Positions 19,136-48,898 of a DNA stretch of 64,000 bases are shown piece by piece. The notes below the pieces were generated by a model. That model had not been told where the DNA came from. It worked only from the letters and a program-made list of their open reading frames with translations, and ran no database searches. Source of the DNA: Lachnospiraceae bacterium (GTDB taxonomy: Bacteria; Bacillota; Clostridia; Lachnospirales; Lachnospiraceae); the NCBI GenBank assembly GCA_050874665.1, contig JBNMLC010000006.1, positions 12,930-76,929 on the forward strand. The letters run 5' to 3'. The position numbers were made by a program, and so were the translations under genes. Every line of letters begins with the position of its first letter. Position 1 is the first letter of the stretch.

Positions 19136-19552
19136 TCAGATTTGGATTTCAATTTCATGCACTCTTACATTTTTGTCAGAATCAATACCGAAAGCTTTTA
19201 AAACAGGCTGCTCTCTTTCCATCAAAGACAATATTAGATATTCCATCGTCGGATCATACGCTAAACGCTTGTCCTCTTCAGACGGTCTAGACGGTGACTC
19301 CGGATGTGAATGAAAGTTTCCAATCATAGAAAATCCGTTTGCCCGCATATCCTTTACCGCTGCTAATTGTTCCTTCGGATCCATAGAAAAATGTTCATTG
19401 CTGGCATCCATATTAGTAAGCAGATATACTTTTTTAATTGTTTTCACTCCATCTTCAATAGAACCGGCAAGAAGACCACAGGATTCATTTGGCAGTCCTT
19501 CTATGCAATGCTTTAAAATTTGATCATAATCTTCTTTATTGAGTTTCAACAT
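19136..19552 (-). CDS. JAMM/MPN+ metalloprotease (Mec/HcyD/QbsD-like)
   Basis: NESCGLL plus HSHPESPSRPSEED, which fits the JAMM motif HxHx7Sx2D. Last gene of the thiocarboxylate cluster. Confidence 0.8.
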   Translation of the reverse strand: MLKLNKEDYDQILKHCIEGLPNESCGLLAGSIEDGVKTIKKVYLLTNMDASNEHFSMDPKEQLAAVKDMRANGFSMIGNFHSHPESPSRPSEEDKRLAYDPTMEYLILSLMEREQPVLKAFGIDSDKNVRVHEIEIQI

Positions 19553-19577
19553 ATCTGGTATTTCTTCCTTTCCATTT

Positions 19578-20384
19578 CTATTTTTTCATATCGCACTCTG
19601 CCTGCTCGTAGTCAATTAATTCTGTAATGGTTGGATTTTCGCCGCATACTGCACAGTGGCAATCTTTTGGTAATGGTACGGTTCTAAATTGCATTTTTAA
19701 TGCATCATAAGTCAAAAGACGTCCGGTCAGCAAGTCGCCCTGACCAATAATGTACTTCACAGCTTCCATAGCCTGCAGACTTCCGATTACACCACCCATT
19801 GCCCCAATGACACCTGCCTGCTTACATGTCGGCACTGCATCCTTTGGCGGTGGATTCTTAAATACGCAACGATAACATGGACCTTCTCCCGGAACATAAG
19901 TCATCAGTTGTCCCTGGAAACGGATAATTCCCGCATGGGAAAATGGTTTTTTCGCCATAACACATGCATCATTAATCAGGAATTTTGCCGGGAAATTGTC
20001 TGTCCCATCAATAATAAAATCATAGTCTTTCAGAAGTTCCATAATATTTTCAGAAGTTACGAAAGTACGGTAGGTATCTACTTTGATATCCGGATTAATT
20101 GCCAGCATACTTTCTTTTGCTGACTTTACTTTTGCTTTTCCAATGTCTGCTGTAGAATGAATAATCTGTCTTTGCAGATTAGACAAATCCACCTCATCTG
20201 CATCTACAATACCAATATGTCCCACTCCGGCTGCTGCAAGATACATAGCCGCTGGTGCACCCAGACCGCCTGCACCAATAATCAGCACGCTGGCATTTAA
20301 GAGTTTTTTCTGCCCCTTAACACCAACCTCTTTCAATATGATATGGCGTGAATAACGTTCTAACTGTTCGTTCGTAAATGCCAT
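19578..20384 (-). CDS. ThiF/MoeB/HesA family E1-like adenylyltransferase
   Basis: GAGGLGAP nucleotide loop. Two CxxC pairs (CYRC, CAVC). Its start overlaps the stop of the carrier gene (TAATG). Confidence 0.85.
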   Translation of the reverse strand: MAFTNEQLERYSRHIILKEVGVKGQKKLLNASVLIIGAGGLGAPAAMYLAAAGVGHIGIVDADEVDLSNLQRQIIHSTADIGKAKVKSAKESMLAINPDIKVDTYRTFVTSENIMELLKDYDFIIDGTDNFPAKFLINDACVMAKKPFSHAGIIRFQGQLMTYVPGEGPCYRCVFKNPPPKDAVPTCKQAGVIGAMGGVIGSLQAMEAVKYIIGQGDLLTGRLLTYDALKMQFRTVPLPKDCHCAVCGENPTITELIDYEQAECDMKK

Positions 20385-20605
20385 TATCTTGCGCCTCCTC
20401 CCATGAAATACAAGAATTCAATCACATCACCTTCTGCTAACTTTGTTGTATCAAAATCAGCTCTGTCAACAAATTCATCATTTCTTGTCACTGTCACATA
20501 ATCTGCATTTTCCACCTGTTCTTTTTCAATCAAAGTTGTGATATTAATTCCTTCTTCATATTCTTTCTTGTTTCCTGCCACTGTAATTGTCATTTTTCTT
20601 CCCAT
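20384..20605 (-). CDS. ThiS/MoaD-like sulfur carrier protein with a C-terminal GG-AR extension
   Basis: Small beta-grasp-sized ORF ending ...FLYFMGGGAR. Translationally coupled to the E1 gene. An alternative start at 20593 gives MTITVAGN. Confidence 0.7.
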   Translation of the reverse strand: MGRKMTITVAGNKKEYEEGINITTLIEKEQVENADYVTVTRNDEFVDRADFDTTKLAEGDVIEFLYFMGGGAR

Positions 20606-20620
20606 CCTTTTCTTTTCGTT

Positions 20621-20938
20621 TTAAATAATGTCTGCAAATAATTCAAGAATTGCATCCTTTTTTACAGCTCCCTTTGTTCTTGCATATTCTTTTCCCTGAC
20701 TAAATACAATAAGTGTAGGAGCAGCCAGAATATTATATTGTTCTGTCAGTGTTTCTTCATAATTCACATTAACTTTGTAAATATCTATTTTTTCTTCGTA
20801 CTCATCTTCTATATCACCAAGAATTCCTGCCACCATTTTACACGGTACACAAGTATCCGAATAAAAATCTACTAATACTGGCTTTTCTGCCTTTAACACA
20901 AGCGTTTCAAATTCTTCTTTGTTAATTCTCTTTGCCAT
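20621..20938 (-). CDS. thioredoxin family protein (CVPC active site)
   Basis: 105 aa. VDFYSDTCVPCKM... is a thioredoxin-fold pattern. Confidence 0.8.
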   Translation of the reverse strand: MAKRINKEEFETLVLKAEKPVLVDFYSDTCVPCKMVAGILGDIEDEYEEKIDIYKVNVNYEETLTEQYNILAAPTLIVFSQGKEYARTKGAVKKDAILELFADII

Positions 20939-20952
20939 AATCTTTCCTTTCT

Positions 20953-21204
20953 CTACTGCTCCTCTTCTACCTTTCGCACAATAAGAGTATAGGTATCATC
21001 TTCATTTTTGTTTAGCTTTAAAATCTGATGTCCTTCTTCTTTGATACTTCTTGGTACATTTTGAACCGGTTCCCCATCATTCATTCGAATGGCAAGAATC
21101 TGTCCATCTTCTAATTCCTCTAAGGCAACTTTTGCCTTTACAAAAGTAACCGGGCAAACAACATCTGTAATATCTACCGTTTCATCAATTTCAAACTCAG
21201 CCAT
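20953..21204 (-). CDS. TusA/SirA-like sulfurtransferase
   Basis: 83 aa. DITDVVCPVTFVKAKVALEEL carries the conserved Cys of the TusA motif. Confidence 0.75.
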   Translation of the reverse strand: MAEFEIDETVDITDVVCPVTFVKAKVALEELEDGQILAIRMNDGEPVQNVPRSIKEEGHQILKLNKNEDDTYTLIVRKVEEEQ

Positions 21205-22060
21205 GATAAGCCTCCTTTATCTTTTCTATAAATTTTTCTTTTCCTACTCGATCCAGTGTAAATTTAAATCTTTCACCGGCATTTGCATAATCTGCAAAGA
21301 ACTGAATTGCCGCATCTGTAATTCTAAAGAGCTGCTCCTCGTCTGTTACTAACGGCAGTGGTGATTCACCCTTGCTAATGGTATTTCCAAACGTTCCGCC
21401 AAAGGACAGAATATATGCTGACTTGGCATCCCATGCATCTGTTGGACAGGATTTTACACATCTGCCACAATAATTGCATTTATCATAATCCACAACTACT
21501 TTTCCATCGTTAACGGTAATCGCATTGCAGCGACACGCTTTTTCGCAGACACCGCAGCCGATACATTTGTCTTCCACCCACTTTACATCTAGTGCTCCCT
21601 TAATGCCGACATCATTTTCCTCTGCTTTCAGGCAGTTATTCTGACAGCCGGTGACTCCAAATTTGAATTTATGTGGCAGTTCTCTTCCAAAATAGCGGTT
21701 ATTCAATTTTTCAGCAATGTCCTGTGTATTGATATTTCCGCTTGGACAAATTTCATTTCCCTGACAGGCTGTCACTGTTCTGACTCTGGGGCCGCATACC
21801 CCAGGCTGACAACCGCCCTTTGCCAGTTCCTCTTTTACTTCATCTATATCTGCCAGTTTAATAAATGGTATCTCCACGCCTTGTCTGGAGGTTAAATGAA
21901 CATATCCATCGCCGAATTTTTCTGCTACTTCAGCAATCTTTTTCAGGTTTTCTGCTGTAAGTGTTCCACCTACCACCTGTAATCTTAAAGAAAAATTGTT
22001 TTTTTGCTTTTGACGCATAAATCCGCCCTTTTTTAACGTTGAGTAATCTACTGCTCCCAT
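21197..22060 (-). CDS. small siroheme-type sulfite reductase-like protein fused to a 2x[4Fe-4S] ferredoxin domain (AsrC-like)
   Basis: SiR Cys motifs TACQGNEIC (CX5C) and GCQNNC (CX3C). Ferredoxin motifs CIGCGVCEKAC and CNYCGRCVKSCP. Confidence 0.7.
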   Translation of the reverse strand: MGAVDYSTLKKGGFMRQKQKNNFSLRLQVVGGTLTAENLKKIAEVAEKFGDGYVHLTSRQGVEIPFIKLADIDEVKEELAKGGCQPGVCGPRVRTVTACQGNEICPSGNINTQDIAEKLNNRYFGRELPHKFKFGVTGCQNNCLKAEENDVGIKGALDVKWVEDKCIGCGVCEKACRCNAITVNDGKVVVDYDKCNYCGRCVKSCPTDAWDAKSAYILSFGGTFGNTISKGESPLPLVTDEEQLFRITDAAIQFFADYANAGERFKFTLDRVGKEKFIEKIKEAYHG

Positions 22061-22084
22061 ATACGCACTCTCCTTTATGTTTCC

Positions 22085-23320
22085 TTACGCATTTAAAATT
22101 GCCTGTTTAAAATCGGCTTTTAAGTCTTCAATATCCTCTATTCCCACGCTGACACGAATCAGGTCATCATATACACCAGAGGCCTCTCTCTCCTCTTTTG
22201 TCAAATGTAGTGCCAATGTAGATTCTGGATGAATCACCAATGTCTTGGTATCTCCAATATTTGACAATATGTACGGTATCTTTAATCCATTAACGATTTT
22301 GAATGCTCTTTCTTTGCTCCCTGCACGTAATGTAAGAATGGCACCATAACCGTTCTGCATTTGTTTTTTCGCTATTTCATGATATCTGCTGTCTAAAAGT
22401 CCAGGATAATTTACGGTGATTCCTGCCTCCAATGTTGTCAAATACTCCGCAAGCTCTAAAGCATTGGCACATTCTCGTTCCATACGAAGTCCCAGTGTTT
22501 CCAATCCTACACAGTTTAAAAATGCATTTTGCGGGGACAGACAGGCTCCCATATTTCGGAACAAGCCATTTCTCAGCTTCGCAATATATGCCATTTTGCC
22601 AAACTTTAAATATTCCTTCAAACCAGGATAACGTTTAGAATCCCATTGGAAGCTTCCTCCGTCCGTTAAAATTCCACTAATTGCATTACTGCTTCCGTTG
22701 ATATACTTTGAAGATGAATTTACTACAATATCTGCTCCTAATTCTAACGGTCTTGTAAGGTAAGGTGATGCTACCGTATTATCAATAATTAACGGAAGAT
22801 TATGTCTGTGGCTCACCTCTGCAACCGCCGCAATATCTGTGACATCTAGTTTTGGATTTCCTATCGTTTCAGCAAACACTACTCTTGTTTTTTCTGTAAT
22901 GAGTTTTTCAAATTCTTCCGGATCATTTTCTTTTACATAGACTGTTTTAATTCCAAATGCCTCAATATCATGAAGCAAATCTACAGTTCCGCCATACAGA
23001 CCTGCAGCCGCAACAATTTCATCTCCGCTCTGTAAAATATTTAAAAAGGCATTGGTCAATGCTGCCATGCCGGAAGCACATGCAATACTGGCAATTCCTT
23101 TTTCTAACTTTGTTATTTTCTTTTCAAACGCTTCGATGGTAGGATTATTTATTCTTGTATAAGAAAATCCCATTGCTTTATTATCAAATATTTTTTCTAA
23201 TTTTTCCGCACTATCATGGAAGAAGGCGCTGGACTGATAAACCGGTACCATCGTTGCTCCGTAGGGATTATCTTCTTTTATATCATGCAACAGCGATGTG
23301 TTAAATCCAAAATTCTCCAT
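22085..23320 (-). CDS. metY: O-acetylhomoserine sulfhydrylase-type PLP enzyme
   Basis: 411 aa. Cys/Met-metabolism PLP family with a Lys in SSSKYINGS. Confidence 0.85.
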   Translation of the reverse strand: MENFGFNTSLLHDIKEDNPYGATMVPVYQSSAFFHDSAEKLEKIFDNKAMGFSYTRINNPTIEAFEKKITKLEKGIASIACASGMAALTNAFLNILQSGDEIVAAAGLYGGTVDLLHDIEAFGIKTVYVKENDPEEFEKLITEKTRVVFAETIGNPKLDVTDIAAVAEVSHRHNLPLIIDNTVASPYLTRPLELGADIVVNSSSKYINGSSNAISGILTDGGSFQWDSKRYPGLKEYLKFGKMAYIAKLRNGLFRNMGACLSPQNAFLNCVGLETLGLRMERECANALELAEYLTTLEAGITVNYPGLLDSRYHEIAKKQMQNGYGAILTLRAGSKERAFKIVNGLKIPYILSNIGDTKTLVIHPESTLALHLTKEEREASGVYDDLIRVSVGIEDIEDLKADFKQAILNA

Positions 23321-23340
23321 TCTCTTACTCCAATCTCTTT

Positions 23341-24270
23341 TTATTTGTACAATGATGTTGATAAATACCTCTCTCCAGTATCCGGAAGTATTACCACGAT
23401 ATTTTTTCCTTCATTTTCAGGACGTTCTGCCAATTTAATTGCTGCATCTAATGCTGCACCAGAAGAAATCCCCACCATAAGTCCGTCACTGGCTGCAACT
23501 TCTCTGGAACGTTGAAATGCTGCGTTATTTTCTACTTTGATAATCTCATCTACAATGTCTAAACGCATTACCTTTGGCACAAATCCTGCACCGATTCCCT
23601 GTATTGAATGCGGTCCCGGTTTTTCGCCGGATAATACTGCTGAAGTAGCAGGCTCTACAGCAATCACTTTGATTGCAGGATTTTTTTCCTTTAATCCAAG
23701 TCCGGTTCCTGTAATGGTTCCACCCGTTCCCACTGCTGAAACAAAGAAATCAATCTTTCCTGCGGTATCTCTCCAGATTTCTTCTGCTGTAGTTACTTTA
23801 TGAATCTCAGGATTCGCATCATTTTCAAATTGCTGGAGTATCACTGCATTGCCATACTGTTTTTTTAACTCCTGCGCTTTTTCGATTGCGCCTTTCATTC
23901 CTTCGTATCCCGGAGTCAAAACCACTTCTGCTCCCAGTGCCTGTACAATCTTTCTTCTTTCCACACTCATTGTTTCCGGCATAGTAAGAATTAAGTGAAG
24001 CCCCCGGCATGCAGCCGAAAAAGCAAGTCCAATACCTGTATTTCCACTGGTAGGTTCAATCAAAACAGTGTCTTGATTAATCTTTCCTTCTCGAATGCCC
24101 TGTTCAATCATCGCATTCGCTACTCTGTCTTTTACACTTCCTAACGGATTAAAGTATTCTAGTTTTGCTATAATATGTGCTTTCAACTGATGTTCCTGCT
24201 CATAGTTCGTCAGTTCTAAAAGCGGTGTATTACCAATTAGTTCTGTCAAATGACGTGCAATTCCTGCCAT
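23341..24270 (-). CDS. cysK: cysteine synthase (CysK/CysM family)
   Basis: IGNTPLLEL, PTSGNTGIGLA and GIGAGF motifs. 309 aa. Confidence 0.9.
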   Translation of the reverse strand: MAGIARHLTELIGNTPLLELTNYEQEHQLKAHIIAKLEYFNPLGSVKDRVANAMIEQGIREGKINQDTVLIEPTSGNTGIGLAFSAACRGLHLILTMPETMSVERRKIVQALGAEVVLTPGYEGMKGAIEKAQELKKQYGNAVILQQFENDANPEIHKVTTAEEIWRDTAGKIDFFVSAVGTGGTITGTGLGLKEKNPAIKVIAVEPATSAVLSGEKPGPHSIQGIGAGFVPKVMRLDIVDEIIKVENNAAFQRSREVAASDGLMVGISSGAALDAAIKLAERPENEGKNIVVILPDTGERYLSTSLYK

Positions 24271-24300
24271 GTTTTCACCATCCTTTTTTCTTCTGAACCT

Positions 24301-24331
24301 ATCATAATCCCTACTAACCTACTATGTCAAT
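24301..24331 (-). promoter_or_regulatory. sigmaA-type promoter of the cysK-to-JAMM operon
   Basis: Minus strand: ATTGACATAGTAGG..., with TTGACA (24325-24330), an 18-nt spacer and TATGAT (24301-24306). It shares a 14-nt string with the promoter at 26061-26091. Confidence 0.5.
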
Positions 24332-24394
24332 ATGTTTATATGAATAACTGGTTATCGAATACACCTATAGCAAACCTCTTTATAACCTCATTAA

Positions 24395-24826
24395 CTATAT
24401 AACATAATTATCAATCCCTTGATTTTCCCGCATCAAATCCGCAATCGTAATTCCCTCTAAATATTCATCAATCACCTTTTCTAACCCTTCCCACATTTTA
24501 AGTGTACTACATTCCATTGCCCGTTCACATGTATTCGGCTTATGATCCAGACAGGCAACCGGTGCCAGTGAATTTTCCGTAAGCTTCAAAATACTTCCAA
24601 TGGTATACTGCTCTGGTCGTCTTGCCAGTTTATATCCGCCACCTTTTCCTCTAAGTGAAATAAGAAAGCCATTTCTGCTTAATATCACAACAATCGACTC
24701 TAAATATTTTTCTGAAATTTCCTGACGCTTTGCAATATCCATCAACGGTATAAATTCTCCTGTATTATGTTCTGCCAAATCAATCATAACACGAATGGCA
24801 TATCGTCCCTTTGTTGAAATTTTCAT
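24395..24826 (-). CDS. Rrf2 family transcriptional regulator (CymR-like)
   Basis: MKISTKGRYAIRVMIDLA... wHTH. 143 aa. Overlaps the upstream gene by 4 nt. Confidence 0.85.
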   Translation of the reverse strand: MKISTKGRYAIRVMIDLAEHNTGEFIPLMDIAKRQEISEKYLESIVVILSRNGFLISLRGKGGGYKLARRPEQYTIGSILKLTENSLAPVACLDHKPNTCERAMECSTLKMWEGLEKVIDEYLEGITIADLMRENQGIDNYVI

Positions 24827-25983
24827 ACTTCTTCCTCTTTTCCTTTTTCATAATCATCTAAAAAATTATATACCATGTCATCTTTATGATAGCCTATAAT
24901 GGTATTTAAATTTACATTGTGAACACTTTTAAATATGTTTCCGTCAATCACATCACTGACTTTTCTCATCTGTGCAATCAATTCTTTCATTTCATCACGT
25001 TTAGAACCTTTTGCCCCACCACAGGTAGCACAGTTTTCTGTAAAACGGCAGGCACACTGAATAAACGATAATTTGTTATAATCCCTCCATGCCATAATAG
25101 CTTCCTCTTTTATCATATACAATGGTCGAATCAATTCCATTCCTTCAAAATGATTGCTATGAAGTTTTGGCATCATTGTTTCTATTTTTCCACCATAAAA
25201 CATTCCCATAAGCACAGTTTCAATCATATCATCAAAATGATGCCCTAACGCTATTTTATTACAGCCTAATTCTTTTGCCTTAGAGTAAAGATAACCTCTG
25301 CGCATTCTGGCACATAAATAACATGGGCTTTTGTCTATTTCTGCCACAATATCAAAAATCTGCGTTTCAAAGACCGTCAGCGGAATTCCAAGCAGTTTTG
25401 CATTGTTTTGTATTATCTCCCAGTTATCTGCATTGTACCCCGGATTCATAATAAGAAATATTAACTCAAACGGAATTTTCCCATGTCTTTGCAGCTCCTG
25501 CATCAATTTTGCAAGAAGCATAGAATCCTTTCCTCCAGATATACATACCGCAATTTTATCTCCCTCATTTACTAACTGGTATTCATTCACTGCTTTTGTA
25601 AATTTTCGCCAGATTGGCTTTCGAAATTTTTTGATTATGCTGCGCTCAATTTCTTTTGTTCTCTCTGCATAGCTTTCTTCCTCCATCATACAATCCAGTT
25701 GATATCTAAGATACGCCCGATAACCTCCTTTAATATTTACGCCGTGTATTCCATGTTCTTGTAATATTTCTACCGCCTCTTTGCTCTTTTCTCCCGTATG
25801 ACATAAAACATAAACGGCTTCTGCCTTTGCAAATTGCTGTATATTCTGTTCTATTTCTTCCAGCGGGATATTGATCGCATTTTCTACCGTCCCACGATTG
25901 AAATTGTCTTCACTTCTGATATCTATTAAGAAGCTGTTTCCTTCGTCTAATGTAAGTAATTCTTGTATGGTGATTTCTTCCAT
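24823..25983 (-). CDS. rhodanese domain fused to a TtcA-like PP-loop tRNA thiolase
   Basis: N-terminal rhodanese with active-site loop CHTGEKS. CISGGKDS PP-loop. Cys pairs CYLCARMRRG and CAC. Start set at ATG 25983 (MEEITIQ). The track ORF extends to 26010, where there is no SD. Confidence 0.75.
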   Translation of the reverse strand: MEEITIQELLTLDEGNSFLIDIRSEDNFNRGTVENAINIPLEEIEQNIQQFAKAEAVYVLCHTGEKSKEAVEILQEHGIHGVNIKGGYRAYLRYQLDCMMEEESYAERTKEIERSIIKKFRKPIWRKFTKAVNEYQLVNEGDKIAVCISGGKDSMLLAKLMQELQRHGKIPFELIFLIMNPGYNADNWEIIQNNAKLLGIPLTVFETQIFDIVAEIDKSPCYLCARMRRGYLYSKAKELGCNKIALGHHFDDMIETVLMGMFYGGKIETMMPKLHSNHFEGMELIRPLYMIKEEAIMAWRDYNKLSFIQCACRFTENCATCGGAKGSKRDEMKELIAQMRKVSDVIDGNIFKSVHNVNLNTIIGYHKDDMVYNFLDDYEKGKEEEV

Positions 25984-26060
25984 AATTTTGCACCCACTTT
26001 CTATTGTCATAAATAAAAGACGCCATGCCAGACGTCTTTTATCAGTTCTTTCTCAAAATT

Positions 26061-26119: not shown

Positions 26120-26290
26120 CTACGTAATCAGTGAAGATACTTTATAATTTTTGAATTTTTCCCTTTCATTTAAATCCGTAAGTTCTATTACAAATCCTGC
26201 CTTTACCACTTCTCCCCCAAGTGCTTCCACCAGTTTAATTATTGCCTCAGTAGTTCCTCCTGTAGCCAGTAAATTATCCAAAATGTTTTC
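26120..26290 (-). pseudogene. apt: 3'-terminal remnant of adenine phosphoribosyltransferase (about the last 55 codons only)
   Basis: [54 protein letters not shown] aligns with the C-terminal third of Apt (PRPP loop DDLLATGGT). No N-terminal two-thirds is present. The upstream sequence is the 3' end of the ABC ATPase gene. Confidence 0.7.
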
Positions 26291-26303: not shown

Positions 26304-27092
26304 CTAAATATAATACTCAATATTGAGTTCTGAATTTCCTAAAAAGCTTGTAAGTATCTTTTTTCGAATTTCCAAAAACAGATTATTGCTTCGATCCCTT
26401 GGTCTTGAAAGTTTCACCGGTATAATCTCTTTAATTTTTCCCGGTCGTTCTGACAAAATCACAATACGATCACTTAGGAAAATTGCCTCGTCAATGTCAT
26501 GAGTGACCAGCACCATAGTACGCTTTTCGTGCTCCCAAATACGAAGTACCTCGTTCTGCATGTTAATACGAGTAAATGCATCCAAAGCTCCAAAAGGTTC
26601 ATCCAACAACAGTACCTTTGGATTTCCTACTAAAGCTCTTGCAATACTGGCACGCTGTTGCATGCCACCGGAAAGTTGTGCGGGGTATGCATTTTCAAAT
26701 CCTGTTAATCCTACTAAATCAATATGTTCCTGAATTTTTTTCTCATGTTCACTTTTCGGTACATCCTTAGGAATTCCAAATCGTATATTTTTCTCTATGG
26801 TAAGCCATGGATATAATCTCGCTTCCTGAAACACCATCCCCACATCAGCAATCGGTTTTTCTACCTTTCTCGTTCCCACATCAATTTCACCCGAACTCGC
26901 CTTTTCCAATCCTATGATGAGTTTTAATAATGTACTTTTTCCACAGCCACTAGAGCCAACAATACTGACAAATTCTCCTGGCTTAATATCTAAATTAATA
27001 TCTTCTAGTACCTGAATATTTTCTTTCTCTAAAGGGTATATCTTGGACACATTACGAATATGCAGTTCATTCTCCTGTAATTGCTCTGCCAT
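26304..27092 (-). CDS. ABC transporter ATP-binding protein, TauB/SsuB (NitT/TauT) type
   Basis: Walker [10 protein letters not shown], signature LSGGMQQR, Walker B LLLDEPF. ATG at 27092 sits 6 nt after AGGTG. The track ORF starts at GTG 27101. Confidence 0.9.
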
Positions 27093-27101
27093 TTTATTCA
27101 C

Positions 27102-27896
27102 CTACCTTCCCTGCTGAATATAGTTCCAGCGTAATAATCTTTTTTGGAGCTTTACAATCATAAAATCTATTAATAATCCCACAATCCCAATAGTAAACAC
27201 ACCTGCCAATACAACATCTGGCTGGGATAACTCTCTTGCGTAGGTAATCATATAACCAATACCAGAAGATGCAGCCACCATTTCTGCAGCTACGACACAG
27301 GTCCACGCTGTACTGACTCCCAAGCGAATTCCCGTAAAAATAGAAGGCCATGCCGATGGTAAAATAACATTAAAAAGGACTTCTTTCTTATTTTTTTCTA
27401 AGACACGTGCTACTTCTAATAATTTCTTATCTGCGGATAAAATTCCACTGATTGTATTTAATAAAACCGGCCATAAAGTTCCAATAATAATAACTGCAAC
27501 CTTTGATCCTTCACCAATTCCTAACCAGAGAATCAATAGTGGAATCCATGCTATCATTGGTATCGGTCGAAAAATGCTGACTAATGAGCTGAGTATTTTA
27601 TTCAACTTTTTTGACAAACCCATCAGCACACCTGACAGGATTCCTATTGCTGAGCCTAGTGCGAATCCCTTAATTACCCTGCCACCACTTACCAGCAAGT
27701 TTTCTGCCAATTCACCATTACCAATCAATTTTATCAATGTCTCCCCTACCTTAACAGGTGAAGGAAGTATATGCTTATTTAGAATCCCCGTTACGCTACC
27801 TATATACCAGACAAGCAACAGCACAATAGGTGCAACTACTTTCAAGAAAATATTATCTATTCTTTTCTTTATATACATATTATCTTTTTCTTTCAT
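27102..27896 (-). CDS. ABC transporter permease, TauC/SsuC type
   Basis: 264 aa and multi-pass hydrophobic. Lies immediately upstream of the ATPase. Confidence 0.85.
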   Translation of the reverse strand: MKEKDNMYIKKRIDNIFLKVVAPIVLLLVWYIGSVTGILNKHILPSPVKVGETLIKLIGNGELAENLLVSGGRVIKGFALGSAIGILSGVLMGLSKKLNKILSSLVSIFRPIPMIAWIPLLILWLGIGEGSKVAVIIIGTLWPVLLNTISGILSADKKLLEVARVLEKNKKEVLFNVILPSAWPSIFTGIRLGVSTAWTCVVAAEMVAASSGIGYMITYARELSQPDVVLAGVFTIGIVGLLIDFMIVKLQKRLLRWNYIQQGR

Positions 27897-27916
27897 ATAC
27901 GCACATCCTTTATCAT

Positions 27917-28387
27917 TTATGCATCTTTTGCAAGCCTGTCAATATGAACATATAGCGGATGCTTTTCTTTTTCTTCTTTCCGGCGAACCGGATAGCTCTC
28001 CTCTATAACCTCAGTAGGTTCAATATAATAAACAGCTGCCAAGTCATTATTTTCATCTCGCTCCTGAGCTGCAATATAAGCGTCTTCATACTCATGTCCG
28101 GCAATCAGACATTTTTTAGGTATGCCTTTGATCTGATAACTTTTTCTTTCTTTCGTAATTATATTAATTGCGACTTTTTTATCAAACCAAAGTGCATATG
28201 TCACATTTTTATGTGTCTGAGAACTCTCTAAAAGTTCCCAATAACGAATCTGTCCGTCCTCTGTGACTGCGATACTCTCTTTTGCTACTACATGTGGAAT
28301 ACCATGACGATCAATTGTAGCAAACACTTTTACACTTTCTTTATCTTCTATAGCTTCTTTTAATTCTTTACTAATCTCTGCTGCCAT
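27917..28387 (-). CDS. PNPOx-like / split-barrel flavin-binding family protein (module 1)
   Basis: 156 aa. ...VKVFATIDRHGIPHVVAKES... matches the N-terminal pattern of pyridoxamine-phosphate-oxidase-like proteins. Paralogue of 30831-31301. Confidence 0.55.
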   Translation of the reverse strand: MAAEISKELKEAIEDKESVKVFATIDRHGIPHVVAKESIAVTEDGQIRYWELLESSQTHKNVTYALWFDKKVAINIITKERKSYQIKGIPKKCLIAGHEYEDAYIAAQERDENNDLAAVYYIEPTEVIEESYPVRRKEEKEKHPLYVHIDRLAKDA

Positions 28388-28460
28388 AATGACTTCCTCC
28401 TATTTTTTGATAAAGTATCAGCCACTTTACTTAATTGCAAAGCAGCTGATACCTCAAAAT

Positions 28461-29729
28461 TTAATCAATTCTCGCTAAATCCGTATTTGGATGATTTCCG
28501 CATCGGCGATAATCGTCTGTATAAATAGTAAGACCATTCTTCCTTCTCACTTCCGCAAGCCCTAGTGCTAACTGCACATAATATTCTAAAGAAGGTGTTT
28601 TCTGTTTCATAAAGATTGCACCCGGAAGCGTATTCCATACACATTCTGCAAAACTTACCCCATGAGCAGCAATTTCCTCTGCTTCTGCGAGTACTGCCTT
28701 TAATGCTTCCTGCTCATCGGAAAATCCATTTGGCTGTGCAGTTTCTACACCGCCGACAATACCACAATCTACATTTCCACGCCCAAATACCTCCACTGCA
28801 TCATATAGACGGTGTTTCCATTCATCATACCCTACTAGTCTTGCCTTTCCAGGACATACCCAACTAAACAATTCTTTGTTTAATACTTCCAAATCTGTAG
28901 TGTAAGTAGTAATTGCTGTTTCCTCATACATTCTTTGAAGCTGCTTTTTTGAAAATGCACTGGCAACCAGCTTCACTGGAAATTTATCTGTCTTAAATGC
29001 CTTTTCTGCTGCATGAAGTGCCTTAATATACAAGTCAACCTCATCATCAAATATTTTCGCACCACTTAAGGTCGAACCGGCTGTCATATGATAGGAAGCA
29101 TAGCGCCCTTTCTGCTTAATTGCCTCTCGTACTGTCTCTTCGACATTCTGAAACCATGTTTCATTTCGGACATCGCCTTCATCATTGGCACCGCGGTGAG
29201 CTGAAAATAATGCACAATACTTACATCCTTCTTTTGGATTGTCCCAAAAGTGACATTTCGTAGCCGGTGCAATTGTAATTCGCTGTGGTCTTGCAGATGC
29301 CACCAGACGCATCGGTGTCCCATTACTTGTTGTTTTGTCATAAAAGTCCGGTTTTTCCCAAAACCATGCTTCCTCGTAAACTTTATCCTTATCAACAATC
29401 ACAAGTTTGTCATCTACTACATCTAATATATACGGATCACGATATGTCCAATCATATACCTGGGTATGTCCCTGGCAAATCACAGAACCGTCTCTTAAAA
29501 ACAATCCAATCGGTGAAATCTGTTTTCCATGTCCAATCAAATAATCATAAGGCTCTACATGATGTTTCTTAGGGTCTACTTTTACAAAAGCTCTATCTGT
29601 ATAAGCAATTCCTCTCCTGCTCACATCAATTTTCAATGCCACAATCGGCGGAATATCCGGATACTTTTCTAAGACCTGCTCATAGCTAAGTTCTTTTTCC
29701 CGCCATTTTGTTTTATCATTAATGCTCAT
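28461..29729 (-). CDS. uncharacterised Fe-S / radical-SAM-like enzyme with a CX9CX2C triad (module 1)
   Basis: ARPQRITIAPATKCHFWDNPKEGCKYC, then HMTAGSTL (a GGE-like motif). Paralogue of 31312-32565. ATG at 29729; the track ORF starts at GTG 29738. Family not recognised. Confidence 0.5.
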   Translation of the reverse strand: MSINDKTKWREKELSYEQVLEKYPDIPPIVALKIDVSRRGIAYTDRAFVKVDPKKHHVEPYDYLIGHGKQISPIGLFLRDGSVICQGHTQVYDWTYRDPYILDVVDDKLVIVDKDKVYEEAWFWEKPDFYDKTTSNGTPMRLVASARPQRITIAPATKCHFWDNPKEGCKYCALFSAHRGANDEGDVRNETWFQNVEETVREAIKQKGRYASYHMTAGSTLSGAKIFDDEVDLYIKALHAAEKAFKTDKFPVKLVASAFSKKQLQRMYEETAITTYTTDLEVLNKELFSWVCPGKARLVGYDEWKHRLYDAVEVFGRGNVDCGIVGGVETAQPNGFSDEQEALKAVLAEAEEIAAHGVSFAECVWNTLPGAIFMKQKTPSLEYYVQLALGLAEVRRKNGLTIYTDDYRRCGNHPNTDLARID

Positions 29730-29762
29730 TGTTTTCACTCTTTTCTTAATCTAATGGAAACT

Positions 29763-30809
29763 TTATTTTGCTACTGCTTTATCAAGAAAGCTGGTATCAA
29801 TGTGATTTTTAATTTCTTCCTCTGTCAATTCATTTGTAATCATATCATGAGTTTCAAGAAAATCATAAGTCTCTTTTAAATTTTTCTCGTAATCTTCATC
29901 CCATATAATAGTTCTGTCAGCGTCCTTATTCGTATTTTTTACACGTTCTACTTCAAAACCCGAAAACTCAGCAACTACTTCATAAGCCTCTTCTTCATTT
30001 TCTTTAATCCATTGTTCCGCTTTGTACAATGCCTCCACCAATTTTTCTAACTCATCCGGATGTTCCTCAAGAAACTTATTCGATACAACATTATAGGAAT
30101 ATGCCGGATGTTTTGAGCAGTCTGCCACTTTTATAAATCCCTGATTTTCCACCTTGTCATGAATATAATCTGCATTCATTGCAAGATAGCCGTCGATATC
30201 TCCACTTTCAAAAGCTGCATCTGCATCACTTGTAGATGTAATATTTACAATATTAACATCTTTTTCATCAATTCCTGCATCATTTAAAATTCCAATTAAA
30301 GATTTATGAACATATGTACCTACAAATACGCCAATTTTTTTCCCCTTAAAATCATTTACATCAGAAATTCCAGCATTCTCTGGTGAAATAATTCCAATAT
30401 TTTCTCCCTGCTTTGCTGCTCCTGAAACAATAGTAGTTTCCACACCATTACCAATTCCGATAATAATTGGCTGGTCACCGATACCATTTACGAAATCAAT
30501 ATCTCCTGCTATAAATGCCTCATTTGCAGCCGGTCCATTTTCAAATTCTACCAATTCTACCTTTACATTATTCCCCGCAAAAGCTTCATCTAAGAAACCC
30601 TTTTGGTAAGCCACCAGAAACTGATCATTCCAGATAGAAAATGGAAAATATGCAACCCTGATTACTGTTTCTTCTTTATTTTCTGTTGTTTTTGAATCAA
30701 CACCAGTCTGTGTATCCTCTTTTGAAGTACTTGTGCAGCCTGCAAGCACTCCTAAAGATAAAGTAAATACTACTGCCAATGCAAAAAATCTTTTCGCTAT
30801 ATTTTTCAT
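29763..30809 (-). CDS. ABC transporter substrate-binding lipoprotein, NMT1/SsuA-like
   Basis: Signal peptide with lipobox LAGC. 348 aa. Sits between the two enzyme modules. Confidence 0.75.
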   Translation of the reverse strand: MKNIAKRFFALAVVFTLSLGVLAGCTSTSKEDTQTGVDSKTTENKEETVIRVAYFPFSIWNDQFLVAYQKGFLDEAFAGNNVKVELVEFENGPAANEAFIAGDIDFVNGIGDQPIIIGIGNGVETTIVSGAAKQGENIGIISPENAGISDVNDFKGKKIGVFVGTYVHKSLIGILNDAGIDEKDVNIVNITSTSDADAAFESGDIDGYLAMNADYIHDKVENQGFIKVADCSKHPAYSYNVVSNKFLEEHPDELEKLVEALYKAEQWIKENEEEAYEVVAEFSGFEVERVKNTNKDADRTIIWDEDYEKNLKETYDFLETHDMITNELTEEEIKNHIDTSFLDKAVAK

Positions 30810-30830
30810 AAATCATCTCTCCTCTTTTTA

Positions 30831-31301
30831 TTACTCTACACCATACAAGCGGTCTAAATGCTTTAACAATGGATATTTCTTTTCATCTTCTTGTACCCGG
30901 ACAGCAAATGTTTCCTCTTTCACCACTTCCGGTTCAATTGTCCAGATTGCTGCCAAATCTATATCGCCAAGCTTTTCTCGCAAGAAAACATAAGCTTTTT
31001 CAAATTTCTTTCCTGCGGTAACGCTTTTTAATGGTTTTCCCACAATCTCATAACTCTTTCCATGATTTGTCAGAATGTTGACTGCAACTTTTTTATCAAA
31101 CCAGATGCTATGTACAAAGTTCTGGTTATTTCTTGAGCTTTCCAACACTTCATAAAACTCTAAATTTCCTTCTTCATTTACATAAAGACTTCCTTTAAAT
31201 ACTACATGGGGAATTCCATTCTTATCAATTGATGCGACGACTTTTAATGTATCTTTTGCACTGATATATTCTTTTAATTCTTCGCTTATAATGTCTGCCA
31301 T
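30831..31301 (-). CDS. PNPOx-like / split-barrel flavin-binding family protein (module 2)
   Basis: 156 aa. ...LKVVASIDKNGIPHVVFKGS... Shares GIPHVV, WFDKKVA and DLAA strings with 27917-28387. Confidence 0.55.
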   Translation of the reverse strand: MADIISEELKEYISAKDTLKVVASIDKNGIPHVVFKGSLYVNEEGNLEFYEVLESSRNNQNFVHSIWFDKKVAVNILTNHGKSYEIVGKPLKSVTAGKKFEKAYVFLREKLGDIDLAAIWTIEPEVVKEETFAVRVQEDEKKYPLLKHLDRLYGVE

Positions 31302-31311
31302 ATTCTTCCTC

Positions 31312-32565
31312 CTAAACTCTTAGCAAATCCATACCTGGATGTGCACCGCACCTTCTATAATCATCTGTGTATGGATTCACTCCATATTTATGCGATAAAA
31401 TATCAAATTGTCGATAAGTTTTAATAAAATATTCCAAAGATGGTGTATCCTGATTTTGGAATATGGAGCCTGGAGAAGTTCTCCATACATTTGCCGCAAG
31501 TGCAATTCCATGAGATATAATTTCTTCCGCCTGCTCTATTACATTTTTATATGCTTCTTCTTCCGTTGCAAATCCATTCGGTTTTGCAAGTTCAGTTCCT
31601 AAGACTACGCCAGAAGATATATTACCTTTACCAAATATATCTACCGCTGCATACAAACGGCGTTTCCATTCTTCATATCCGATATGTCTTGCTTTTCCAG
31701 GACATATCCAGTCAAATTTTTCTTTATTCAGCACTTCAATATCTGTTGTATACGTCATTAATTTAGTCTCATGGTATAGGCGTTCTAACTGTTTTTCATT
31801 GAATGCAGAAGAAATCAGCTGACTTGGAATACGATCTGCATTGAAATTTTCTCCAATAGCCTGAAGAATTTCAATGTAACCTTCCAGTTCATCATCCAGC
31901 AATTCTTCACCGGAAAGTATCGAACCTCCTGTCAGGAGAATGCTTGAAAATCTTCCTTTTTGTTTCAAAGCCTCTTTCACCGTTTCTGCTATATATTTCA
32001 CCGGATATCTCTCTTCTTTTTCTCCACGCTTTATGTAATTAGGAGCCATCGGGCAATATTTGCATCCTTCTTTGGCTGTATCCCAAAAATGGCACCACTG
32101 GCACATATAAATATCTATTCTCTGAGGTCTTGCAGTTGCATAACGGCTCATTGGTTCCCCATTGGAAGCCTTTTTATCATAAAAATCTGGTTTTTCCCAA
32201 TATCCGACCTCTTCTAATACTTTCCCCTGGTCTGTGATAACAATTTTATCATCCACAACATCCACTATATATGGATCTCTCTGTGCTTTCTCAGGGTCAA
32301 AGTCAAAGTTCGTAATCAGGTAGGAACCATCCCTGAGAGTCAGACTCTCAGGGGCGTAATCCTGTGTCGTTCGAAATCCGGCAATTGTTCCTATATTGAC
32401 TTGATGGATATTAGGGACTATGCGTTCCTTCGCTGCCTGTGTATAAATTACACCTCTCCTCTGCACATCTACCTTCAAAGTCCAAATCGGTGGAACATCC
32501 GGATATTTTTTCAAAACTTCATCTAAGCTTAATTCTTTTTTTCTCCATTCTTTATCTCGTGCCAT
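31312..32565 (-). CDS. uncharacterised Fe-S / radical-SAM-like enzyme with a CX9CX2C triad (module 2)
   Basis: ARPQRIDIYMCQWCHFWDTAKEGCKYC, then LLTGGSILSGEE. Shares WEKPDFYDK, TYTTD.EVLNKE, CPGKAR, TPSLEY and YTDDYRRCG.HP with 28461-29729. Confidence 0.5.
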   Translation of the reverse strand: MARDKEWRKKELSLDEVLKKYPDVPPIWTLKVDVQRRGVIYTQAAKERIVPNIHQVNIGTIAGFRTTQDYAPESLTLRDGSYLITNFDFDPEKAQRDPYIVDVVDDKIVITDQGKVLEEVGYWEKPDFYDKKASNGEPMSRYATARPQRIDIYMCQWCHFWDTAKEGCKYCPMAPNYIKRGEKEERYPVKYIAETVKEALKQKGRFSSILLTGGSILSGEELLDDELEGYIEILQAIGENFNADRIPSQLISSAFNEKQLERLYHETKLMTYTTDIEVLNKEKFDWICPGKARHIGYEEWKRRLYAAVDIFGKGNISSGVVLGTELAKPNGFATEEEAYKNVIEQAEEIISHGIALAANVWRTSPGSIFQNQDTPSLEYFIKTYRQFDILSHKYGVNPYTDDYRRCGAHPGMDLLRV

Positions 32566-32585
32566 ATCCTAGCTTTCTCCTTTTC

Positions 32586-33764
32586 TTACAGATTCTTCTT
32601 AATTTCTTCCACCTTATCCAATCTTTCCCACGGTAAATCAATATCTGTTCTTCCAAAGTGACCATATGCTGCCGTCTGCTTATAAATTGGTCTTCTTAAA
32701 TCTAAGGCATCAATGATTGCTGCCGGTCTTAAATCAAATACCTTTTCGATTACTTCGACAATCTTTTCTTCCTGAACCGTTCCTGTTCCAAAGGTGTCTA
32801 CTGCAATTGATACCGGTTTTGCTACACCGATGGCATAAGCAAGTTCCACTTCTGCTTTCTTTGCAAGCCCCGCTGCTACTAAATTCTTTGCCACCCATCT
32901 TGCTGCGTATGCTGCAGAACGGTCAACCTTTGTCGGATCTTTTCCTGAAAATGCTCCACCGCCGTGACGACCTGTACCACCGTAAGTATCTACAATAATC
33001 TTTCTTCCGGTTAATCCGGCATCCCCCTGTGGTCCTCCAATTACGAAACGTCCAGTTGGATTGACATAATAAATCGTATCTTTATCCAACAGTTCTGCCG
33101 GAATCACTGGTTCGATTACATACTTAATAATGTCCTTGCGAATCTGCTCTAGAGTTATTGCCTCTGCATGCTGGGTAGAAATAACAATGGTATGAACTCT
33201 CTTTACATTATTGTTATCATCAAATTCTACTGTTACCTGTGACTTTCCATCCGGTCTCAAATAAGGAACTGTTCCATCCTTTCTCACCTTTGCCAGTTGC
33301 CTCGTAAGTCTGTGTGCAAAAGAAATTGCCGGTGGCAAGTATTCTGGCGTTTCATCTGTTGCGTATCCAAAGATAATTCCCTGGTCACCAGCACCTGTAC
33401 CAAAATCTTCTGTAGCACCTTCTTGTTTTGATTCATATGCCTTGTCCACGCCAAGTGCGATATCCGGTGACTGTTCATCCAAAGATGTCAGTACTGCAAT
33501 GGAATCTGCATCAAAACCACCAGCACTTCCGTCATAACCAATTTCCCGAATAGTGTCTCTTGCAATCTTCGCAATATCAACATAAGCATTTGTAGATATC
33601 TCTCCAACTACTAATGCCAGCCCGGTTGCAACCGTTGTTTCTGCTGCAACTCTTGCGTTTGGATCTTGTGCAATTAATGCATCTAAAATTGCATCGGATA
33701 CTTGATCCGCAATTTTATCTGGATGTCCTTCTGTTACTGATTCTGATGTAAATAATTTACTCAT
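32586..33764 (-). CDS. metK: S-adenosylmethionine synthetase
   Basis: [19 protein letters not shown] and GGGAFSGKD motifs. 392 aa. Only 20 nt, with no hairpin, before the next gene. Confidence 0.97.
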
Positions 33765-33859: not shown

Positions 33860-33955
33860 TTATAAAGAAGTGAAGCAACAATTTTCCCTCTCCTCTGTTG
33901 CAATGCATCTACATTGTGTCTGTCTGTTCCAATAACTGGTTGTCTTCTTTTTCAT
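33860..33955 (-). CDS. candidate 31-codon Cys-rich upstream ORF / leader peptide in the metK 5' region
   Basis: AAGGAG lies 9 nt before the ATG. MKKKTTSYWNRQTQCRCIATEERENCCFTSL has 4 Cys. Below the ORF-track cutoff. It could be a chance ORF. Confidence 0.25.
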   Translation of the reverse strand: MKKKTTSYWNRQTQCRCIATEERENCCFTSL

Positions 33956-34061: not shown

Positions 34062-34075
34062 TGAAATCGTTTACA
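34062..34075. promoter_or_regulatory. cre / LacI-family operator-like palindrome O1
   Basis: TGAAATCGTTTACA fits the cre consensus TGWAANCGNTNWCA at every defined position. Confidence 0.45.
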
Positions 34076-34154: not shown

Positions 34155-34168
34155 TGAAATCGTTTACA
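34155..34168. promoter_or_regulatory. cre / LacI-family operator-like palindrome O2 (identical copy)
   Basis: Identical TGAAATCGTTTACA (15 nt identical counting the preceding T), 93 bp from O1. Confidence 0.45.
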
Positions 34169-34368: not shown

Positions 34369-35448
34369 TTAAATATAATATTCACACCAGCCGCTTTCGT
34401 CTGCCGCTATACAACTACTTCTTACTATCAGTTTTCCTTCTAACTCTGTACGAACAACACTTGTATGTCCGCCTTTGATTCGATCAAGCAGCAAATATAT
34501 AGCAAATTTTCCCATCTCTTCTCTGGGCAATCTTACTGTGGTAAGCATTGGTTTTGTGTACTGTGCTTCCTCAATATCGTCACTTCCAATAATAGAGGGC
34601 ATATAATAAAGGTTTTTAAACTTTTTAAGACATTTTAACATTCCAATAGCAGTAATATCATTGGCACAATAAATACCGGTAGGGTAATCACCGGACTGTA
34701 ACATTTGTTCCATCACCTTATACCCTTCTGTCTCCGTCTGCTTTGTTTCTATCACATAATTTTCTTCACATTCCAGCCTATATCTTTGAAGAGTATCAAT
34801 ATATCCTCTATACCTGGCTTCATTATGACACTCCCCAACATACCCTATGCTTTTATGCCCCAACTCAATTAAATATTCCACTGCCGTTGAAGCTACTTTG
34901 TATCCATCGCATAACACCTCATCTACTTCATTATTAGTCGAATTTCTATTAATAGAAACTACATTTTTATATTTATTCTTTAGCTTTTTCAACGCTACTT
35001 TATTACATTTTCCAACTATAATGAGACCATTGCATCTCTCATTCGGTTCGTTATGCATTTCTTCAATAATTTGATCCAAATTTTCTGTTCTGCATTTTCT
35101 ATCATTAGAAAACACAGACATATACATTACTTTAGATAAAATGCAGGACTGCTTATGTATTTCACTCTCAATCACACGCAAAAGTTCTGTAAAAAATGGA
35201 TCTGCTTTAGAAACATCAATACGCGTCATTAATACATGGATATAATATGTTTTTTCTGGTGTAATACCCTTTTTCAAATTGCGTGCCGCTTCATTTGGGA
35301 CGTAATTCATTTCTATAGCAAGTTTCCATATTTTATCCCTTAATTGAGATGAAGAACATTTATAATTTGGATTATTCAGCACTCTGGATACAGTGGCTGT
35401 AGATACTCCTACCTTTTGTGCAATTTTTTTTAAAGACATAATTCTCAT
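34369..35448 (-). CDS. LacI family transcriptional regulator
   Basis: N-terminal HTH SLKKIAQKVGVSTATVSRVLNN followed by a periplasmic-binding-protein-like sugar domain. 359 aa. Confidence 0.85.
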   Translation of the reverse strand: MRIMSLKKIAQKVGVSTATVSRVLNNPNYKCSSSQLRDKIWKLAIEMNYVPNEAARNLKKGITPEKTYYIHVLMTRIDVSKADPFFTELLRVIESEIHKQSCILSKVMYMSVFSNDRKCRTENLDQIIEEMHNEPNERCNGLIIVGKCNKVALKKLKNKYKNVVSINRNSTNNEVDEVLCDGYKVASTAVEYLIELGHKSIGYVGECHNEARYRGYIDTLQRYRLECEENYVIETKQTETEGYKVMEQMLQSGDYPTGIYCANDITAIGMLKCLKKFKNLYYMPSIIGSDDIEEAQYTKPMLTTVRLPREEMGKFAIYLLLDRIKGGHTSVVRTELEGKLIVRSSCIAADESGWCEYYI

Positions 35449-37409: not shown

Positions 37410-37422
37410 ATTTACAAAACAT

Positions 37423-37775
37423 ACTAAGCAAGACGATAAGCCGGGTTATGTCGCGAATCATCATCTATCTAGGACTGTCGTCGCCAACAGCCTCCAGCAA
37501 CCAACCTAGAACCGACGGGCCATCGTATGTTCAAATTCGGTTTTGCTTCGAGTGGGGTTTACATATGCCCTATGTGTTACCACATAGGCGGTAGTCCCTT
37601 ACACTGCCCTTCCACCCTTACCATATTGTAGCACAATATGGCGGTATATTTCTGTTGCACTAGCCTTGGAGTCACCTCCACCAGACGTTATCTGGCACCC
37701 TGCCCTGTGAAGCCCGGACTTTCCTCACCTGCGGCCTTTCGGCACTTGCAGCTGCGATGATTTGTCTTACTTACT
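37423..37775 (-). ncRNA. rnpB: RNase P RNA (bacterial)
   Basis: Minus strand contains the universally conserved GAGGAAAGUCCGGGCUUCACAGGGCAGGGUGCCAGAUAACGUCUGG. The 5' AAGUAAGACAA pairs with the 3' UCGUCUUGCUU (P1). About 350 nt in a gene-free gap. Confidence 0.9.
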
Positions 37776-48814: not shown

Positions 48815-48898
48815 TGCGGGAGATGGGACTTGAACCCACACGACGTTGCCATCACTAGATCCTTAGTCTAGCCTGTCTGCCAATTCCAGCACTCCCGC
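48815..48898 (-). tRNA. tRNA-Leu, anticodon reads AAG (type II, long variable arm)
   Basis: Hand fold: GCGGGAG UG CUG GAAUUGGCAGA CAG G CUAGA CUAAGGA UCUAG UGAUGGCAACGUCGU GUGGG UUCAAGU CCCAU CUCCCGC A. The 7-nt anticodon loop CU-AAG-GA has U33 and G37. No encoded CCA. Confidence 0.85.

Follow-up and report, generated by a model that had tools for sequence, protein, structure and literature searches.

Three enzymes are listed for the oxygen-independent desulfonation of isethionate and its derivatives, namely Xsc, IslAB and isethionate reductase (Isr). In Rhodobacter capsulatus, anaerobic growth with isethionate as the only source of sulfur depends on the radical S-adenosylmethionine (SAM) gene isrB, on the nitrogenase-like genes isrHDK and on the transporter genes ssuCAB alike (PMC11423573). 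We describe here an eight-gene operon in a 64,000-nt stretch of DNA from a Lachnospiraceae bacterium (assembly GCA_050874665.1, contig JBNMLC010000006.1, positions 12,930 to 76,929 of the forward strand; hereafter, the window). To judge from its sequence, the operon encodes a new IsrB-related radical-SAM system in which the nitrogenase-like partner is replaced by a split-barrel subunit and the SAM synthetase gene metK has been recruited. On balance, we favour the view that it would let a gut-type, strict anaerobe gain sulfur from an imported organosulfur anion by oxygen-independent C-S cleavage, a reaction for which the nitrogenase-like partner would not be needed.

The operon runs from metK through two copies of a gene pair, each coding for a large protein (rSAM1, 417 aa; rSAM2, 425 aa) and a 156-aa protein (sb1, sb2), with the gene for a lipoprotein substrate-binding protein (SBP) between the pairs, and ends with the permease and ATPase genes of an ATP-binding cassette (ABC) importer (Table 1). 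Gene order, strand and coordinates derived from the open reading frames (ORFs) are exactly those of a preliminary description made from the sequence alone. Intergenic gaps are, in operon order, 20, 10, 21, 24, 73, 20 and 0 nt, and Shine-Dalgarno sequences precede most of the genes. The metK-rSAM1 junction, earlier said to have 20 nt between stop and ATG, a Shine-Dalgarno site and no hairpin, does have this spacing together with an AAGGAG sequence, and its folding (-3.5 kcal/mol) gave no stable hairpin. From metK on, no terminator-like hairpin with a U-tract was found before that at 26011-26040, past the ATPase gene. Because the junctions are tight and furnished with Shine-Dalgarno sites, and no terminator intervenes, a single transcription unit best explains the eight genes.

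The 73-nt spacer between rSAM2 and sb2 contains a hairpin that is kept in the closest relative in our genome scan (L001, a faecal Lachnospiraceae metagenome-assembled genome with 93% identity in rSAM1) and is absent from other relatives with a duplicated module. One possibility is that it acts in mRNA processing or stability, so that the two halves of the operon are expressed to different extents. The preliminary description had missed this hairpin, the terminator-like one at the end and the variation in cysteine spacing among relatives that is described below.

Both the large and the small proteins form paralogous pairs, as had been proposed, with end-to-end alignment of rSAM1 and rSAM2 (51% identity, E 1e-154) and 49% identity between sb1 and sb2 (E 2e-53). 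In place of the canonical radical-SAM motif CX3CX2C, rSAM1 and rSAM2 share the sequence CHFWDxxKEGCKYC (CX9CX2C), followed some 41 residues later by TGGS or TAGS; both elements had been noted before. An alignment of 28 homologues contains five invariant cysteines, comprising the triad (C158, C168, C171), C288 in a WxCPGK motif and C406 in an RRCGxHP tail. The suspected kinship to radical-SAM enzymes was borne out in profile searches by NCBIfam NF045502 (variant_rSAM), which rSAM1 and rSAM2 matched with 185.4 and 182.1 bits against a cut-off of 125, but not by Pfam PF04055 (Radical_SAM), for which rSAM1 reached 25.4 bits with a threshold of 29.5 and rSAM2 had no match; for TIGR04043 (MSMEG_0568 radical-SAM family), scores of 41.9 and 44.2 bits were far below the cut-off of 303.7. 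In Foldseek searches with an AlphaFold (AF2) model of rSAM1 (predicted local distance difference test score, pLDDT, 88.5; predicted template modelling score, pTM, 0.88), the top matches in the PDB were all radical-SAM barrels (MgmA, BioB, LipA, NifB, NosL, PylB), with probability 1.0, E down to 9e-8 and template modelling (TM) scores of 0.40-0.45. The modelled fold is that of a radical-SAM barrel and, since these TM-scores are modest, one with no close characterised structure; sequence searches of the PDB with rSAM1 and sb1 yielded nothing useful.

CX9 spacing is not the defining trait of these proteins: it occurs in 49 of their relatives within the family and CX8 in 37, and at RadicalSAM.org a CX9CX2C megacluster (4-6-4) is listed beside CX8CX2C clusters. 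What marks the clade, on present sequences, is a C-terminal (R/K/H)(R/K/H)CGxH tail, found in 87 of the 89 members of the family and in none of eight sister proteins, along with the sb partner. An ArsL-like enzyme for aminocarboxypropyl (ACP) transfer was considered and rejected, since ArsL is from a different family, with the cluster motif in its canonical form (CX3CX2C) and RCCLKC as its tail.

For the small proteins, the PNPOx-like split-barrel fold suggested before was recovered in an AF2 model of sb1 (pLDDT 88). Its best Foldseek match was HupZ (5esc; TM 0.85, 21% identity), followed by an FMN-binding protein, F420-binding proteins and HutZ, and the model identifies sb1 as a split beta-barrel of the HupZ/FMN-binding type. 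That each large protein forms a two-subunit unit with its small neighbour, another earlier proposal, agrees with gene arrangement in relatives, where 69 of 90 family rSAM genes directly abut an sb gene, and with natural rSAM-sb fusions of 567-621 aa, at least six of which are among the matches listed. In the fusions, the C-terminal extension shows homology to sb (hhalign probability 97.7%, E 1.6e-12, 136 columns), which argues strongly for rSAM and sb acting as a single enzyme. We therefore consider it very likely that the operon encodes a two-subunit rSAM/sb enzyme that serves the importer.

The preliminary description could not assign the large proteins to a family. They can now be placed as paralogues of the IsrB clade (Morimoto et al. 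2024). Several related loci also encode a more distant rSAM homologue with a CX8CX2C motif, which scores 396-445 bits on NF045502 and follows an SBP-ATPase-permease set of its own; in L022 and L023 its gene lies directly before NifH-like and NifDK-like genes. The sister protein of R. cellobioparum (L051:19919-21115) is exactly WP_027629038.1, which is listed as the IsrB orthologue of that species in Table S9 of Morimoto et al. 2024 (PMC11423573). As rSAM1 is 27% identical to this protein (276 aa, E 4e-25), the window rSAMs are IsrB-clade paralogues rather than members, and orthology is contradicted both by their NF045502 scores (182-185 against 396-445 bits) and by the absence of the tail from the sisters. 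Their paralogy anchors the system in anaerobic sulfonate assimilation. The two kinds of protein are homologous, fall under NF045502, have an ICPGK-type motif in common and an expanded spacing (CX8 or CX9) before CX2C, are accompanied by SsuABC-type importers in anaerobes and stand side by side in several genomes. They differ in that the window rSAMs have the tail with its invariant cysteine, which IsrB-type proteins lack, in that their partner is the 156-aa split barrel, sometimes fused, instead of NifH/NifDK-like proteins, and in that the window-type module is often led by metK. MarB was rejected as an identity for the sister rSAM, since MarB is a NifB homologue.

In L022 and L023, and likewise in L028, L031, L037 and L039, isrBHDK-type operons (SBP-ATPase-permease set, CX8 rSAM, a NifH-like gene and two NifDK-like genes) lie directly upstream of metK-rSAM-sb-importer operons, and one genome with this juxtaposition is that of a human-gut isolate, MGYG-HGUT-00145. 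As a side remark, the two operon types would seem to form organosulfur-acquisition islands.

Conservation of the neighbourhood was examined in a scan of one genome per species, which gave 74 loci from Lachnospiraceae, Clostridium, Ruminiclostridium, Desulfitobacterium, Pelotomaculum, Caproiciproducens, Treponema and other Spirochaetes, Synergistaceae, Competibacteraceae, Myxococcales and Desulfuromonadaceae; an exhaustive profile search found 121 rSAM representatives at E <= 1e-30. The full set of rSAM, sb, SBP and permease genes is present in 57 of the 74 loci, with a spread from Lachnospiraceae, Clostridium and Desulfitobacterium to Treponema, Synergistaceae, Competibacteraceae, Myxococcales and Desulfuromonadaceae. 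A neighbouring metK was counted in 39 of the 74 loci by greedy gene calls and in 45 by phmmer, so that the ties to an SsuABC-type importer and to metK seen earlier in the window alone are recurrent. Moreover, metK may be upstream, downstream or divergent, and these three arrangements argue that the linkage is functional rather than accidental. IsrB-related proteins thus appear to be a widespread module, usually without nitrogenase-like genes and with a split barrel as partner instead, sampled here in gut and rumen Lachnospiraceae, clostridia, spirochaetes, Synergistetes and proteobacteria. Further neighbours include a GNAT protein after sb in 18 loci and a second family rSAM followed by an MfnA-like pyridoxal phosphate (PLP)-dependent decarboxylase and mostly then by GNAT (L035, L040, L041, L047, L048, L050, L051, L054). 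These hint at amino-bearing substrates, and some substrates might be amines or amino acids, for instance cysteate or compounds of the taurine type. The sb-associated rSAM of C. tyrobutyricum, at first guessed to be WP_017751562.1, proved on exact look-up to be WP_039653242.1.

In family and in make-up (SBP, permease, ATPase), the importer matches SsuABC and TauABC, and its presumed role in sulfur scavenging is also the same. It differs from them in that C-S cleavage by SsuD and TauD needs O2, whereas the enzyme of the window operon is of the oxygen-sensitive radical-SAM type, and in that its SBP scores below the cut-offs of the equivalog models for SsuA and TauA. The nearest solved relatives of the SBP, which has a Pfam match to NMT1, are SsuA and TauA, and it keeps Gly68 and Gly86 of the four residues (Gln36, Gly68, Gly86, Ser141) that coordinate sulfonate in X. 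citri SsuA. Best NCBIfam matches of permease and ATPase were SaoP and SaoA of the SAO system (SaoA/SaoP/SaoX; Haft 2022 preprint), with scores far below cut-off (permease 192 against 295, ATPase 264 against 360, SBP 40 against 300 bits). With every score under its cut-off, membership of that system was rejected, and the NCBIfam scan gave no match between the eight proteins of the operon and other Sao-specific models such as SaoL and SaoB.

Next to the operon, within 7 kb, lies a sulfur-assimilation block coding for a rhodanese + PP-loop protein, an Rrf2 regulator, CysK, O-acetylhomoserine (OAH) sulfhydrylase, a small NIR_SIR/ferredoxin sulfite reductase, TusA, thioredoxin, ThiS, ThiF and a JAB protease. 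Of the 74 loci, 33 carry one or more sulfur-assimilation genes, most often OAH sulfhydrylase (12 loci), followed by Rrf2 and ThiF (7 each) and cysK, NifS and NifDK-like genes (5 each). Given this setting and the kinship to IsrB, we regard a role of the rSAM/sb system in sulfur acquisition as probable. That the substrate is a sulfonate, yielding sulfite, is a narrower proposal that we hold tentatively, a little short of an even chance.

The same neighbours lend some weight to a different substrate. In this alternative a thioether or methylthio compound would release methanethiol, from which OAH sulfhydrylase would form methionine and MetK then SAM, making the system a functional radical-SAM analogue of methylthio-alkane reductase (MAR), which produces methanethiol for methionine synthesis. 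It would account for metK being the commonest extra neighbour (39-45 of 74 loci) and OAH sulfhydrylase the commonest nearby sulfur gene, with the operator motif described below in common in L073. We nevertheless think it unlikely: the SBP is of the anion-binding SsuA/TauA type with its dipole glycines kept, the homologous characterised system is the sulfonate system Isr and not Mar, whose MarB is a NifB homologue, and sulfite reductase is present in the window and in some other loci. Small thioethers, moreover, are not known to need an ABC importer.

Within the block, the segment 19136-24270 (minus strand) is a complete cluster of ThiS/ThiF/JAB, TusA, thioredoxin, sulfite reductase, OAH sulfhydrylase and cysK genes, of which the metY-Sir-TusA-Trx part recurs beside the module in L010, L012, L017, L021 and L073. 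The ThiS-like protein ends in GGGAR, that is, with two residues after GG, so that the JAB protease presumably exposes the GG terminus. We take the ThiS/ThiF/JAB/TusA set to resemble a protein-thiocarboxylate route to homocysteine.

Under the favoured view of sulfur gain from an organosulfur anion, the compound, most likely an alkyl- or amino-sulfonate, would be imported by the SsuA-like lipoprotein, the permease and the ATPase and handed to two paralogous enzymes, each pairing a split-barrel subunit with a variant radical-SAM subunit related to IsrB. In the latter, C158, C168 and C171 would hold a [4Fe-4S] site, with C288 and C406 as candidate thiyl, hydrogen-donor or resolving residues, and SAM-derived radical chemistry would break the C-S bond and free inorganic sulfur, probably sulfite. 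In this scheme sb would be an obligate partner of rSAM, whether by carrying electrons or a cofactor or by closing over the active site, a role that we infer, like the substrate class, the product and the SAM stoichiometry, from context. MetK would be co-expressed because the radical-SAM enzyme needs SAM and SAM is scarce under sulfur starvation; its co-expression would keep SAM available, which would also explain the recurrent genetic coupling of the module to SAM synthetase. The freed sulfur could then pass to cysteine, homocysteine and methionine through sulfite reductase, ThiS/ThiF/JAB/TusA, OAH sulfhydrylase and CysK. PhnJ of C-P lyase and the glycyl-radical sulfonate lyases (IslA/IslB, HpsG) are comparable as anaerobic radical systems that cleave carbon-heteroatom bonds in nutrient scavenging, and by analogy with PhnJ the extra conserved cysteines of the window rSAMs could act as thiyl or resolving residues. 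These enzymes differ from the window system in that no sequence relationship was detected, the window system has no glycyl-radical partner and its mechanism is only proposed.

Our leaning towards this view as a whole combines high confidence in the two-subunit enzyme, fair confidence in sulfur acquisition and a more tentative judgement on the conversion of sulfonate to sulfite. A stronger version, possible but on the doubtful side, is that the rSAM + sb pair is a self-sufficient oxygen-independent desulfonase, either a C-S lyase or a reductase. If so, Xsc, the glycyl-radical lyases and Isr would be joined by a fourth way of making sulfite anaerobically, and IsrB-type proteins would be the real C-S-cleaving catalysts, with IsrHDK (or sb) supplying only the second half-reaction. 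It could also underlie the assimilation of sulfonate sulfur by fermenting Clostridium spp. that Denger and Cook reportedly described in 1997. In any case, a two-protein system offers a much simpler setting in which to ask whether the radical-SAM family itself cleaves C-S bonds, and it is a candidate route by which fermentative gut and rumen anaerobes draw sulfur from sulfonates. As to the preliminary description, which had proposed a duplicated two-subunit enzyme acting on the imported compound and expressed with SAM synthetase, the observation itself is confirmed and its interpretation as a whole is supported in part.

Several points weigh against sulfur gain from an organosulfur anion. A literature search gave no biochemical or genetic data on any member of the clade, and no description of the window rSAM clade was found in the searchable literature. 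The SBP clears TIGR01728 (SsuA subfamily) by only 2 bits (165.5 against 163.5) and fails every SsuA/TauA equivalog model (73 against 299 bits for SsuA NF008588). It has Tyr166 at the position of Ser141 of X. citri SsuA, with Thr165 adjacent, and YFPF in place of the Gln36 motif, and transporters of the NitT/TauT family also move non-sulfur substrates. Sulfite reductase occurs in only three of the 74 loci, and 41 have no sulfur gene within the fetched flanks. For the small proteins, Pfam PF01243 (PNPOx) gave 16.9 and 13.9 bits, below its threshold of 28.1, and the closest structures to sb1 are haem-associated. Finally, IsrB may be either a catalyst or a maturase, a maturation role having been proposed for it.

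By extension of this last point, the window rSAMs could be NifB- or activase-like maturases for an enzyme encoded elsewhere, such as a nitrogenase-like reductase, and NifH-/NifDK-like genes do lie near the module in five to six of the 74 loci. There is no such gene in the 64-kb window or in about 68 of the 74 loci, and the constant partners of rSAM are sb and the importer. With rSAM-sb fusion proteins in addition, and with 65 IsrB-clade proteins against 34-40 for IsrH, IsrD and IsrK in the published ortholog count (PMC11423573), we consider a maturase very improbable. A further alternative is a function unrelated to sulfur, in which metK would meet only the demand for SAM. The system could, for example, salvage or degrade a pyrimidine, a vitamin or a compound of tetrapyrrole type, by analogy with the pair of HutW (radical SAM) and HutZ (split barrel) in anaerobic haem degradation. 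In its favour, sb is structurally closest to the haem-associated HupZ and HutZ, the module has hem/siroheme genes beside it in eight of the 74 loci, and NMT1/THI5-type SBPs, to which the NMT1 match links that of the window, include pyrimidine binders. We give such a non-sulfur role as little credence as the maturase, considering the sulfur-gene context and IsrB homology, the different class of SBP and permease in haem importers, and the lack of a thiamine pyrophosphate (TPP) or other riboswitch before metK in the window or before the module in seven loci. Siroheme, furthermore, is the cofactor of sulfite reductase, so that the hem genes fit sulfur acquisition as well.

Table 1. Features of the metK-rSAM-sb-importer operon and its surroundings (positions are those of the window).
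Feature	Coordinates	Strand	Basis or remark
metK, SAM synthetase, first operon gene	32586-33764	-	TIGR01034, 589 bits against cut-off 309
rSAM1, 417 aa, variant radical-SAM	31312-32565	-	NF045502, 185 bits
sb1, 156 aa, split beta-barrel, partner of rSAM1	30831-31301	-	AF2 and Foldseek
Lipoprotein SBP, NMT1/SsuA family, lipobox LAGC	29763-30809	-	TIGR01728, 165.5 bits against 163.5
rSAM2, 425 aa, paralogue of rSAM1	28461-29738	-	NF045502, 182 bits; 51% identity to rSAM1
20-bp hairpin, rSAM2-sb2 spacer	28413-28455	-	Region -33 kcal/mol; without clear U-tract
sb2, 156 aa, paralogue of sb1, partner of rSAM2	27917-28387	-	49% identity to sb1
ABC permease, SsuC/TauC/SaoP-like	27102-27896	-	BPD_transp_1; best NCBIfam matches below equivalog cut-offs
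ABC ATPase, SsuB/TauB/SaoA-like, last operon gene	26304-27101	-	ABC_tran
Terminator-like hairpin with U-tract	26011-26040	-	First such element past the ATPase gene, at ~260 nt
Sulfur-assimilation block downstream of operon	19136-26010	-	Adjacent genes
LacI-family regulator gene, directly upstream of metK	34369-35448	-	Best NCBIfam matches RbsR, CytR, PurR, all below cut-off
LacI-type operator-like palindrome TGTAAACGATTTCA, copy 1	34155-34168	-	Exact copy
LacI-type operator-like palindrome TGTAAACGATTTCA, copy 2	34062-34075	-	Exact copy
Promoter-like site	34127-34099	-	Flanked by the two TGTAAACGATTTCA copies
31-codon Cys-rich ORF, strong Shine-Dalgarno, four cysteines (MKKKTTSYWNRQTQCRCIATEERENCCFTSL)	33860-33955	-	In the ~330-nt metK leader

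Upstream of metK, a promoter-like site is flanked by two exact copies of an operator-like palindrome, and the LacI-family gene beyond them is a candidate regulator of the operon; LacI-family homologues (cluster c7) precede metK in 12 related loci. The motif TGWAAACGNTTWCA, with at most one mismatch, is common to related loci (L001, L002, L003, L011-L013, L019, L027, L028, L032, L033, L043, L045, L073), where about 22 of its 28 matches precede an operon that starts with metK, rSAM, SBP/transporter genes or metY (OAH sulfhydrylase), at a distance of 76-400 nt from the first gene. Through this common motif, metK and the module appear to share one regulon in Lachnospiraceae, which points to a regulon of methionine and sulfur genes under a LacI-family protein in these bacteria. 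The motif also resembles a catabolite-responsive element (cre) and may be bound by CcpA. No riboswitch or T-box was detected ahead of metK in the window (Rfam gathering or E-value thresholds) or upstream of the module in seven diverse loci, and this mode of control was rejected. The short Cys-rich ORF in the metK leader is conserved only in L001 (81% amino-acid identity) and may encode a leader peptide or have arisen by chance. Its pairing with rSAM as a ribosomally synthesised and post-translationally modified peptide (RiPP) system was discarded, the ORF being kept only in L001 and the module travelling with an importer.

The 293-nt gap past the ATPase gene contains, at 26120-26278 (minus strand), about 52 C-terminal residues of an adenine/phosphoribosyl transferase-like protein (DNLLATGGT...) without a start, with a weak Pribosyltran match (E 0.0024), probably a gene remnant. 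Elsewhere, the window includes an RNase P RNA, a T-box leader and a tRNA (37421-37773, 58339-58538 and 48815-48898, respectively, all on the minus strand), as well as rpoD, dnaG and folate genes, which together mark it as ordinary chromosomal DNA.

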